Below are positions 1 through 17,536 of a DNA stretch of 47,195 bases, in pieces. The stretch is taken from contig BTTF01000003.1 of NCBI GenBank assembly GCA_036244995.1, forward strand, positions 1 through 47,195, given 5' to 3'. The stretch's first letter is position 1, and every line of letters begins with the position of its first letter. Origin of the DNA: a bacterium. Its GTDB lineage: Bacteria; Nitrospirota; Thermodesulfovibrionia; Thermodesulfovibrionales; JdFR-85. The position numbers were made by a program, and so were the translations under genes. Below the pieces are notes generated by a model that saw only the letters and a list, made by a program, of their open reading frames with translations, was not told where the DNA came from and ran no database searches.

Positions 1-903
1 GATGACAGTGACAGGGAGTATTTTGTAGAAATACTTCAGCGTGCAAAGGAGAAGTATGGGATCGAAGTCTATGCATATTGCATAATGGGGAACCACTATC
101 ATTTACTCATATCAACGCCGGATGGAGAACTCACAAAGGCGATGCACTTTATCGGGTCGAGTTACGGAAGTTATCTGCGGAGATACCGTGGGTTGACAGG
201 CCATGTATTTGCCGGGAGATACAAGTCGTTGTGTGTGGAGAAGGAGAGCTATCTCCTGGAATTAAGCAGATACATTCACCTGAACCCGGTACGGGCAGGT
301 ATAGTGAAATCTCCTGAAAAATATGCGTGGAGCAGTTACAGATACTATATCGGAAAGAAGACGAGTCCTGATTGGCTGAGTATGGAATGGCTGACAGATA
401 AGTGCGGGAAAAGGCTGAAGACAAGACAGAGGAAATATGGAGAATATGTAGAGGCAGGGATAGAGAGTCAAGCGGAATATCCGGTAGAGAAGATAGTGGG
501 GCAGGCAATTCTTGGGAGCAAGGAGTTTGTCAAAAAAGTGCTGAAGGGATTGAAGAAGACCCGAAAGCTGAAAGATGTGACTGCAAAGAAGGCATTTGAT
601 GGGAAGATAGAGTTGGATGAACTGTATCAGGAAGTGTGTGAGTATTATGGAATAAAAGACTTGAGGAAGAGTGAAAAAGCGAGGGGCTCAGATGAGAGAC
701 GGGCTCAGGAAATGTTCGTGTATCTGGCAAAAAAGCATACGTCGGCATTAAATAGAGAAATAGCAGAGCGGGTGGGGGATATCAGTGCATCAGCAGTGAG
801 CCATCAATATAAAAGAACGGGCAGGAAGATGCAGGGGAATAAGAAGACGGCAAGGCAATGGAGAAAAGAGTTTAAAGAGCTTGCTTCACGATTCAAGGGC
901 TGA
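1..903 (+). mobile_element. Y1/HUH transposase (IS200-like TnpA, REP-associated RAYT type) with C-terminal DnaA-C-like HTH; 5'-truncated by window edge
   Basis: Frame 1 is open from base 1 (DDSDREYFVEIL...YAYCIMGNHYHLL). Shows HUH motif HYH, YIHLNPVRAG with the catalytic Tyr, WSSY, and a C-terminal 'REIAERVG..SASAVSH' HTH. Confidence 0.88.
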
Positions 904-16973: not shown

Positions 16974-17460
16974 AATGCAGGGCAGGTGAGATGGTTGCTC
17001 CGCAGGCCGGCGTATGCCTGAGATTGCGGAGAGGAAAGTCCGGGCTCCGAAGGGCAAGGACAGTGGCTAAGTGCCACCGTCCCGCATCCGCAAGGATTTA
17101 TCCAGCCGGCTGCGGGATAGGGAAAGTGCCACAGAAAAGATACCGCCTGTGTGAAGGGGTCAGGTCTCAACATTCAACATAAGCAGGTTCTATCCGGGGA
17201 GCTTGAGAGTTATGTTGAATGTTGAGACCTGACCCCTCATCTCACGGTAAGGGTGAAAAGGTGGGGTAAGAGCCCACCGCTGCGGGGGTGACCTTGCAGG
17301 CATGGTAAACCCTGTCCGGAGCAAGGCCATGTAGGTTCCGCCTCGAGGGTGGCCCGCCCGATTGAGCGGAACGGGTAGGCTGCATGAGTCCGGGAGCAAT
17401 CCCGGACCTCAGATGAATGACCATTACATACAGAACCCGGCTTATTGCCTGCTCTGCATT
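16974..17460 (+). ncRNA. rnpB: RNase P RNA, bacterial type A, about 487 nt with enlarged P12
   Basis: GAGGAAAGTCCGGGC (17031), GGAAAGTGCCACAGAAA, GGTAAGGGTGAAA, GGTAAACC, ACAGAACCCGGCTTA; P1 = AATGCAGGGCAGG / CCTGCTCTGCATT. Confidence 0.95.
17155..17237. mobile_element. Putative non-autonomous hairpin element (perfect 28-bp inverted repeat) inside rnpB P12
   Basis: AGGGGTCAGGTCTCAACATTCAACATAA (17155-17182), 27-nt loop, exact reverse complement at 17210-17237. The repeat is seen directly; mobility is inferred. Confidence 0.7.
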
Positions 17461-17523
17461 CAATATAAGAAGGTTTTATCCTGGGAGCTTGAGAGTTATG
17501 TTGAATGTTGAGACTTGACCCCT
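17457..17523 (+). repeat. Second, left-truncated copy of the P12 element at the rnpB 3' end
   Basis: 62/67 identical, ungapped, to 17171-17237. Confidence 0.9.
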
Positions 17524-17536
17524 GACTTTAAAAATT

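Follow-up and report, generated by a model that had tools for sequence, protein, structure and literature searches.

Helix P12 of the type A RNase P RNA gene (rnpB) in a 47,195-nt stretch of bacterial DNA (the window) carries an 83-nt hairpin that, judged by its sequence, is a non-autonomous dimer of the TIRYT/TIRtron family, made of two 28-nt terminal inverted repeats (TIRs) around a short spacer. We consider it very probable that such a dimer inserted into P12 once, in an ancestor of the present carriers, was passed on vertically, and was later duplicated locally.

Results

An inverted-repeat element extends helix P12

We identified a full-length rnpB in the window with cmscan (RF00010, 266.5 bits, E 6e-86, model positions 1-367), above the gathering score of 100 and thus a member of the type A RNase P RNAs. 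The alignment leaves 83 extra nt, all of them in the loop closing the helix between ACAGAAAA..ACCGCC and GGUAAGGGUGAAA, which we take to be P12 from the type A structure. A previous reading of the window, made from the sequence only, had described a perfect 28-bp inverted repeat with a 27-nt loop in P12 and had proposed an Rfam alignment as a check; the repeat search returned exactly this structure (arms of 28 nt, 100% complementary, 27 nt between them), and RF00010 puts the entire insert in the P12 loop. For a 28-nt inverted repeat without a mismatch, its arms no more than 100 nt apart, the chance expectation in 47 kb is ~47,000 x 100 x 4^-28, or <1e-10. As RNA, the P12 region (17141-17252) is predicted to fold at -67.4 kcal/mol (z -10.3), a value reached by 0/200 shuffles.

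P12 is a peripheral helix whose length varies among bacteria. The P12 region measures 109 nt in the genome holding the window (G000), versus 34 nt and 33 nt in two relatives of the same genus (G001 and G007). The native base of the helix next to the insert is fast-evolving among the species that carry the element, with 23/120 pairwise differences at 17147-17154 and 46/105, plus indels, at 17238-17247.

Table 1. Coordinates of rnpB, its two repeat copies, and the transposase-encoding element (window positions unless a contig is given)
Feature	Position	Strand	Remarks
Full-length rnpB (bacterial type A RNase P RNA)	16979..17459	+	RF00010 match
Native P12 base, 5' strand (CCGCC u GUGUGA)	17143..17154	+	cmscan alignment
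Left arm of putative TIR dimer, 28-nt terminal inverted repeat	17155..17182	+	starts A + GGGGTCAG
Spacer of P12 copy, 27 nt	17183..17209	+	
Right arm of putative TIR dimer	17210..17237	+	100% complementary to 17155-17182
Native P12 base, 3' strand, then J12/13	17238..17252	+	cmscan alignment
Left-arm remnant of downstream copy, 12/28 nt	17457..17468	+	fused to rnpB 3' end
Spacer of downstream copy, P12 type	17469..17495	+	23/25 identical to P12 spacer
Right arm of downstream copy	17496..17523	+	one mismatch to P12 arm (27/28)
TIRtron, 1,000 bp	G000:C29:17628-18627		bounded by same 28-mer as P12 arm
TIRtron ORF, 305 aa	C29:17656-18573	minus	Y1_Tnp + Bac_DnaA_C

The arm belongs to a dispersed family with its own transposase gene

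We searched G000 (2.26 Mb in 191 contigs, given here as C-numbers) by BLAST and found the same 28-nt arm in inverted pairs on C28 (96 and 93 nt), C18 (149), C53 (127), C77 (64), and C29 (1,000), with solo or partial arms on C5, C134, and C55. In all, this genome has a single TIRtron of 1,000 bp and some ten mini copies of the family, and one of the dimers lies in frame within folC. The spacers of the dispersed copies are mutually unrelated, and one spacer type is common to the two rnpB copies only: the P12 spacer used as a query matched C3 only, twice.

The left repeat of the TIRtron is identical to the arm at 28/28 positions, and the right repeat shares a 20-nt exact core. The encoded 305-aa protein scored 50 bits against Y1_Tnp, the IS200-like HUH transposase family (cut-off 23), and 57.8 bits against Bac_DnaA_C over residues 230-293 (cut-off 31.5). 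In a sequence search of the PDB it matched DnaA domain IV only and none of the solved Y1 transposase structures. Its translation contains HYH and, further on, a YIH..NP stretch, which presumably represent the HUH motif and the catalytic Tyr. Seven more paralogs of this transposase (30-46% identity) bring the genome's total to eight, and one paralog is found at the very start of the window.

The sequence-only reading had proposed a mobile-type origin, to be checked by a genome-wide BLAST search with the element. That proposal holds: other copies are present, including the 1,000-bp Y1-encoding element, and the hairpin belongs to a dispersed, transposase-associated family, a copy of which landed in P12.

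The element resembles TIRYT repeats more closely than REPINs or MITEs

TIRYT transposases and TIRtrons are described, in the available text of Di Nocera, De Gregorio, and Rocco (2013, PMC3733652), as having long terminal inverted repeats, not REPs, as flanks; many of these repeats begin GGGGWSAS, and some make up moderately abundant families of single and dimeric copies. Most TIRYTs fall in Y1 subclass 2.1, of which the 2.1.2 members have a Bac_DnaA_C-like tail (Quentin et al., 2018, PMC6006769, available text). The C-terminal HTH expected of a TIRYT transposase is Bac_DnaA_C, HTH_23, or HTH_28. On C29 the repeat flanks a Y1 (HUH) gene in inverted orientation, the outer repeat end carries GGGGWSAS (the arm reads A-GGGGTCAG), and the transposase has a C-terminal HTH in the form of Bac_DnaA_C.

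The earlier assignment of the hairpin as REP/REPIN-like was right in part. The element is a dispersed, transposase-linked hairpin, and its inverted doublet is predicted to fold as DNA at -31.2 kcal/mol, as expected of a REPIN. We rejected a strict REP/REPIN assignment because a REP unit is itself an imperfect palindrome and the single 28-nt arm is not self-complementary (a fold of 0.0 kcal/mol as DNA, with shuffles averaging -1.3), because the 305-aa protein scores 73 bits against the curated model of REP-associated transposases (NF047646, REP_Tyr_transpos, NCBI), below its cut-off of 80, and because the features of the element fit TIRYT/TIRtron. DDE-type MITEs have a target-site duplication around their inverted repeats; here, duplications of each length from 2 to 8 nt were seen at 0-2/26 elements, which is the chance level, and the outermost base pair is complementary in 20/26, a further difference from REPINs and DDE-type MITEs alike.

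Six species of the genus carry the insert

In six of the eight species of the genus (G000 and G002-G006), P12 holds the element at one and the same position, and each of these six genomes contains the repeat family. G001 and G007, with their short P12, are relatives of the kind that the sequence-only reading had suggested looking for. Searches for the repeat family at E<=0.001 gave no match in G001 (96% complete), in G007 (91%), or in the sister genera G008, G009, and G013. Four metagenome contigs have the same arrangement, of which L214 and L213 match G002 and G004, respectively, over the aligned stretch, while L211 and L212 are further variants; these 4 contigs, all from this genus, were the only ones returned by a metagenome scan for the right arm plus J12/13.

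To G000, GyrA identity is 98-99% for G003, G004, and G005 versus 91-92% for G001 and G007. The GyrA tree, drawn without the incomplete genomes of G002 and G006, in which GyrA had no match, places G001 and G007 together (support 92/92) as sister to the carriers G000, G003, G004, and G005 (100/100). A tree built from rnpB only instead nests G001 and G007 among the carriers (group support 97/99), and on that tree the alternative history would be a loss of the element. We gave the rnpB tree less weight, rejecting it as a species tree in favor of GyrA, because it is built on few columns (385) and on a small number of variable helices, which conflict. Since the GyrA tree puts G001 and G007 outside the four placed carriers, the simplest reading is that the element inserted once, in the ancestor of the carriers, roughly when the family entered the lineage. 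The evidence for the insertion is a phylogenetic pattern between species, as opposed to an empty allele within one. GyrA of G001 and G007 has diverged by ~8%, and their P12 differs in sequence, so that the exact insertion point and any native loop that was lost can no longer be read.

Mobility was not observed among the species compared, in which the TIRtron and most mini copies are at orthologous loci. The TIRtron occupies one orthologous locus in G000, G002, and G005, with repeats identical at 28/28 positions and an interior that is 93-94% identical.

The copy behind rnpB is a local duplicate

A left-truncated second copy at the rnpB 3' end had been noted from the sequence and is present: by BLAST it spans 17457-17523 and is 62/67 identical to the P12 copy (92.5%), and the repeat search delimits it at 17452-17523 (72 nt, 90%), overlapping the final 3-8 nt matched by Rfam. 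Its predicted local fold is -26.4 kcal/mol (z -2.9). We do not claim it as the rnpB terminator because no terminator-like T run follows it. Among the relatives, G002, G003, G004, and L212 have a full-length downstream copy, and G005 and G006 have none. Because it carries the 5' flank of the rnpB P12 ahead of it (12 nt in L212, 7 nt in G002, a 9/11 match in G004), we conclude from the shared sequence that it arose by local duplication of the P12 copy and its flank, and is neither an independent arrival nor an older, "decayed" copy. The loss of 16 nt of the left arm in G000 would fit a deletion between two CATT words. The sequence-only reading had set against its own proposal a local duplication out of rnpB with no other copies in the genome; the duplication accounts for the downstream copy, but dispersed copies exist.

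The hairpin could be cut out of the RNA

As a working guess, the hairpin would be transcribed as part of the rnpB RNA. RNase III cuts the Correia/nemis hairpins of Neisseria and removes intervening sequences from 23S rRNA. RNase III is encoded in this genome (237.6 bits, cut-off 166), and the duplex in P12 is long and perfect. It is therefore possible, though we think it less likely than not, that the insert has the origin given above but that RNase III or some other endonuclease cleaves its duplex, removing distal P12 and leaving a two-piece RNase P RNA held together by other helices. The fast evolution and indels of the native P12 base beside the insert are consistent with such cutting. So is the case of Thermodesulfatator indicus, in which, according to the available text of PMC9945441, an expansion segment of about 70 nt in P12 is removed in vivo, giving a fragmented RNase P RNA, in an organism that also has both RNase P types. 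Against a direct transfer of that case, the T. indicus cleavage region is described in the same text as A/U-rich, with RNase E as the first suspect, whereas the base of the duplex here is not A/U-rich.

Arm conservation is shared by copies outside rnpB

The sequence-only reading had taken the perfect internal duplex beside a decayed external copy as a sign of either selection on structure or a younger insertion. To place this contrast, we counted pairwise differences among the six carrier species by coordinates on alignments. The P12 arms differ at 18/420 and 5/420 (right arm 5/420), and the P12 spacer at 58/189 (18/81 among the long-form carriers). The arms of the two orthologous C28 copies differ at 10/420, 28/460, 15/405, and 10/420, their spacers at 197/576 and 168/570, and the C28 intergenic flank at 155/548. 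Thus, over three orthologous loci, two of which lie within essential genes (rnpB and folC), arms are 1-6% divergent versus 28-34% for spacers and flanks. Because the arms are equally conserved at orthologous loci other than rnpB, we conclude from these alignments that the perfect duplex is not evidence of selection at the RNA level and that arm conservation characterises the family wherever a copy is fixed. With the external copy full-length in other species and a local duplicate, neither half of the earlier interpretation is supported.

We consider it improbable, then, that the insert is kept as an aid to RNase P, for example to folding or stability, with its perfect stem reflecting selection on RNA structure. 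The retention of the insert in 6/6 carriers speaks for this idea, as does one compensatory G-C to C-G change adjoining the short spacer in G006; moreover, replacing the long P12 of T. indicus with a short one impaired complementation (PMC9945441, available text). In addition to the conservation of the C28 arms, the pairs themselves argue against it: 24/26 scored arm pairs of rnpB never vary among carriers and are hence silent on structure, and the variable pairs number two, a G-U and a broken pair in G003. The spacer has also changed in length between carriers and is inverted, in its short form, in L211, where the sequence hints at exchange between the arms. Possible reasons for the constancy of the arms are transposase binding, arm-to-arm conversion, or a role for the host.

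rnpB appears functional beside a second type of RNase P

The rnpB core is conserved, its 3' part being 2% divergent (66/3180 pairwise differences); compensatory changes occur in 18/157 predicted pairs, in other helices, among the 8 sequences of the genus, and rnpA is present (91 bits). These features of the sequences indicate that rnpB is still a working gene. The genome also holds a gene of the PIN_5 family (195 bits), the family that includes HARP, a protein-only RNase P (PMC9945441, available text). The earlier description of the host RNA as an essential ribozyme therefore has to be qualified, since a HARP-family protein-only RNase P homolog is encoded as well.

We extended the comparison to 41 genomes of the order, of which 15 gave no RF00010 match, all 15 with PIN_5; 7 gave no PIN_5 match, all 7 with rnpB; and 19 had both. 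By a landmark measure, P12 was at least 67 nt in 14/19 genomes with both genes versus 0/7 without a PIN_5 match. These counts come from related, non-independent genomes, one of the seven is 71% complete, and the RF00010 search filters are strict and lose weak matches; we regard the co-occurrence of long P12 and PIN_5 as a lead, not a test. There are 8 long non-TIR inserts among these genomes. We searched four of them (G019, G013, G022, and G008, the remainder being G009, G010, G015, and G034), and each matched only itself in its own genome, so no present-day repeat family stands behind these four sister-genus inserts.

The same counts, together with the HARP homolog, could be read to mean that rnpB is a decaying relic beside a HARP-type enzyme and that the insertion is damage of no consequence. 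We find this very unlikely, given an rnpB that is full-length to the model, its low 3' divergence and compensatory pairs, the intact rnpA, and the limits on the genome counts just stated.

The family is widespread and probably moved into rnpB

Searches at E<=1e-20 returned 4,078 proteins that combine Y1 and DnaA_C domains. An exact 19-mer of the arm occurs in at least 133 stretches from many phyla; the labels among the matches listed include Atribacterota, Clostridia, Nitrospirota, Thermodesulfobacteriota, and Methylomirabilota, as well as Aminicenantes, Aerophobetes, Elusimicrobia, Omnitrophota, and others. Viral contigs gave 0 exact matches to this 19-mer. At 80 loci examined from the matches listed, we found 20 dimers of 61-218 nt and rnpB at none. 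Because the family is old and widespread, we read the direction of transfer as from the element into rnpB.

An assembly artefact, which the sequence-only reading had raised against itself, is excluded because the same junctions are found in five other genomes of the genus and in the four metagenome contigs, and because Logan contigs of two studies bridge both junctions (X1 records 1 and 4; X4 records 27, 28, and 31), X1 perhaps being the sample of origin. We give practically no credence, then, to a native P12 hairpin that seeded the dispersed copies or to an assembly chimera at a repeat: the downstream copy is truly a local duplicate out of rnpB, as the former would have it, but the other copies have unrelated spacers, the arm 19-mer and transposase family reach across many phyla away from rnpB, and both rnpB halves flank the insert in all six genomes and the four contigs.

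Discussion

In the history that we favor, one TIR dimer would have entered the apical part of P12 in the common ancestor of the six species and then been inherited vertically. By analogy with IS200/IS605 and REP systems, the Y1 enzyme may have inserted it by single-strand, hairpin-dependent cut and paste, which leaves no target duplication. Because P12 is peripheral and variable in length, the ribozyme core would have remained untouched, with P12 lengthened by a roughly 28-bp coaxial duplex; tolerance of the insert would come from this peripheral position, perhaps together with redundancy with the HARP-type protein-only RNase P. Later, the P12 copy and about 12 nt of its 5' rnpB flank would have been duplicated directly behind the gene, and in G000 the second copy would then have lost part of its left arm.

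The source of an RNA expansion segment is legible in this case as a transposase-associated inverted-repeat element that sits at the P12 tip and has become fixed in a clade; it illustrates one concrete route by which structured RNAs gain extra helices. Extra helices of RNase P RNA and rRNA are usually treated as "expansion segments" at helix tips, including P12 (PMC12974513, available text), with no source assigned to them. This one lineage joins P12 expansion, coexisting RNA-based and protein-only RNase P, and a duplex of a size for RNase III; redundancy-enabled ribozyme remodelling, an idea raised for T. indicus in the available text of PMC9945441, therefore becomes directly testable. For the question, still open, of what keeps TIRYT/REPIN-like arms conserved at fixed loci, the element is a clear example. 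More speculatively, DNA transposon hairpins might be a working source of RNA expansion segments, with the TIR dimer cut out by RNase III to give a natural two-piece ribozyme, and with the unrelated 70-140-nt P12 extensions of the sister genera, all alongside HARP-type RNase P, as older insertions of this kind tolerated once RNase P became redundant; we regard this extended proposal as doubtful.

Both ingredients of our account were already known, as TIRYT repeat families (2013) and as repeat-derived or excised P12 extensions (STRRs, and T. indicus in 2023). A transposon-derived insert in rnpB was not reported in the literature that we searched, whose scope lay outside subscription journals.

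MITEs of DDE transposons, such as Correia/nemis and ERIC, are short elements with inverted repeats whose transcription together with host genes yields long RNA hairpins. The element described here is likewise a short inverted-repeat hairpin, but it lacks a target-site duplication and its partner enzyme is of the Y1 rather than the DDE type.

Short tandemly repeated repetitive (STRR) sequences reportedly occur in P12 of heterocyst-forming cyanobacteria, as Vioque is said to have described in 1997; to our knowledge, they are tandem heptamers with no known transposase. In both cases a genome-wide repeat family supplies P12 sequence without killing the enzyme, although here its members have inverted repeats and the genome encodes their transposase. 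P12 has been called "sometimes dispensable (e.g. in cyanobacteria)" (PMC2858038).

T. indicus shares with the present lineage a type A P12 that is longer by about 70-90 nt, a hot-vent setting, and the set of rnpA, rnpB, and a HARP homolog. The paper on it does not discuss the origin of its segment ("mobile" and "transpos" occur 0 times; PMC9945441), whereas the segment here is a recognisable transposon derivative; excision, in turn, is shown for T. indicus only.

Like the REPIN-RAYT system (Bertels and Rainey, 2011, PMC3116915, available text), the family forms hairpin doublets, has a cognate Y1 gene flanked by the repeat, and shows persistent vertical inheritance without target-site duplication. 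It departs from that system in having about ten copies rather than hundreds, eight paralogous transposase genes rather than one, a single arm that is not palindromic, a protein below the REP_Tyr_transpos cut-off, and a repeat sequence common to many phyla rather than specific to a lineage.

The closest match is to TIRYT/TIRtrons, with which the family shares a Y1 HUH gene with a Bac_DnaA_C-like tail between long inverted repeats that start with GGGGWSAS, and further repeats elsewhere in the genome as singles and dimers in moderate numbers. The available portions of PMC3733652 and PMC6006769 make no mention of RNA genes as hosts of TIRYT repeats. In contrast to TIRYT/TIRtrons as described there, one dimer here lies within a structured RNA gene and another in frame in folC, and copies and TIRtron alike occupy loci that are orthologous across six species, where the arms have changed far less than the spacers.

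RNase P types and the elements that carry the repeat

Bacterial RNase P in this order is a patchwork. Among 41 genomes surveyed (the host genome, G000, and 40 relatives), 19 carry both rnpB and PIN_5, the family that includes HARP, a form of RNase P made of protein only, while PIN_5 is present without a match to RF00010, the bacterial type A RNA model, in 15, and rnpB without a PIN_5 match in 7. A long P12 was found in 14 of the 19 genomes with both genes versus none of the 7 with rnpB only.

Features located in the window and in the host genome
Feature	Location	Strand	Remark
PIN_5/HARP	G000, contig C142, 703-1248		
Promoter-like match	window 17508-17535	+	consensus match only
Y1+DnaA_C transposase paralog, 5'-cut	window 1-903, contig start	+	Bac_DnaA_C 30.5 bits, slightly below cut-off
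TIR dimer, 93 nt	G000, contig C28, 12018-12110 (outside window)		in frame inside folC-like gene
folC-like gene with TIR dimer inside	G000, contig C28, open frame 13448-11856	-	

An exact 19-mer of the TIR arm is common to genomes labelled as at least 10 phyla (loci L048-L127), whereas the cognate transposase proteins are just ~60-70% identical; the enzyme is less conserved than its repeat. The host genome has seven Y1+DnaA_C transposase paralogs (on contigs C89, C13, C3, C36, C79, C162, and C25), and the paralog at the start of the window shares 34% protein identity with the transposase encoded on contig C29. Behind rnpB, the promoter-like match takes a TTGAGA hexamer from the downstream copy's right arm, and an nfeD-like gene (start 17537) lies immediately 3' of the match.

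The dimer inside the folC-like gene is read through without a stop, contributing ~31 residues, and was found in all six carrier species (orthologous copies in L182-L186). A named Nitrospirota record, L116, looks to have the same arrangement. A further TIR dimer adjoins the stop codon of folC.

Variation of the P12 insert

In the metagenome contig L211, the short P12 spacer (9 nt) is the reverse complement of the spacer shared by carriers G002 and G005; the loop is inverted between the arms. In rnpB of sister genera (L022, L026, L027, L031, L032, L023, and L046), P12 regions of 67-142 nt bear no sequence relation to one another; every one is closed by inverted termini, different in each, and the inserts were single-copy in their own genome in all four cases searched. 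In G034, from another family of the order, P12 (L038, 1633-1746) has tandem repeats of heptamer-like units in one of its strands and the complementary units in the other, an arrangement that recalls the cyanobacterial STRR case.
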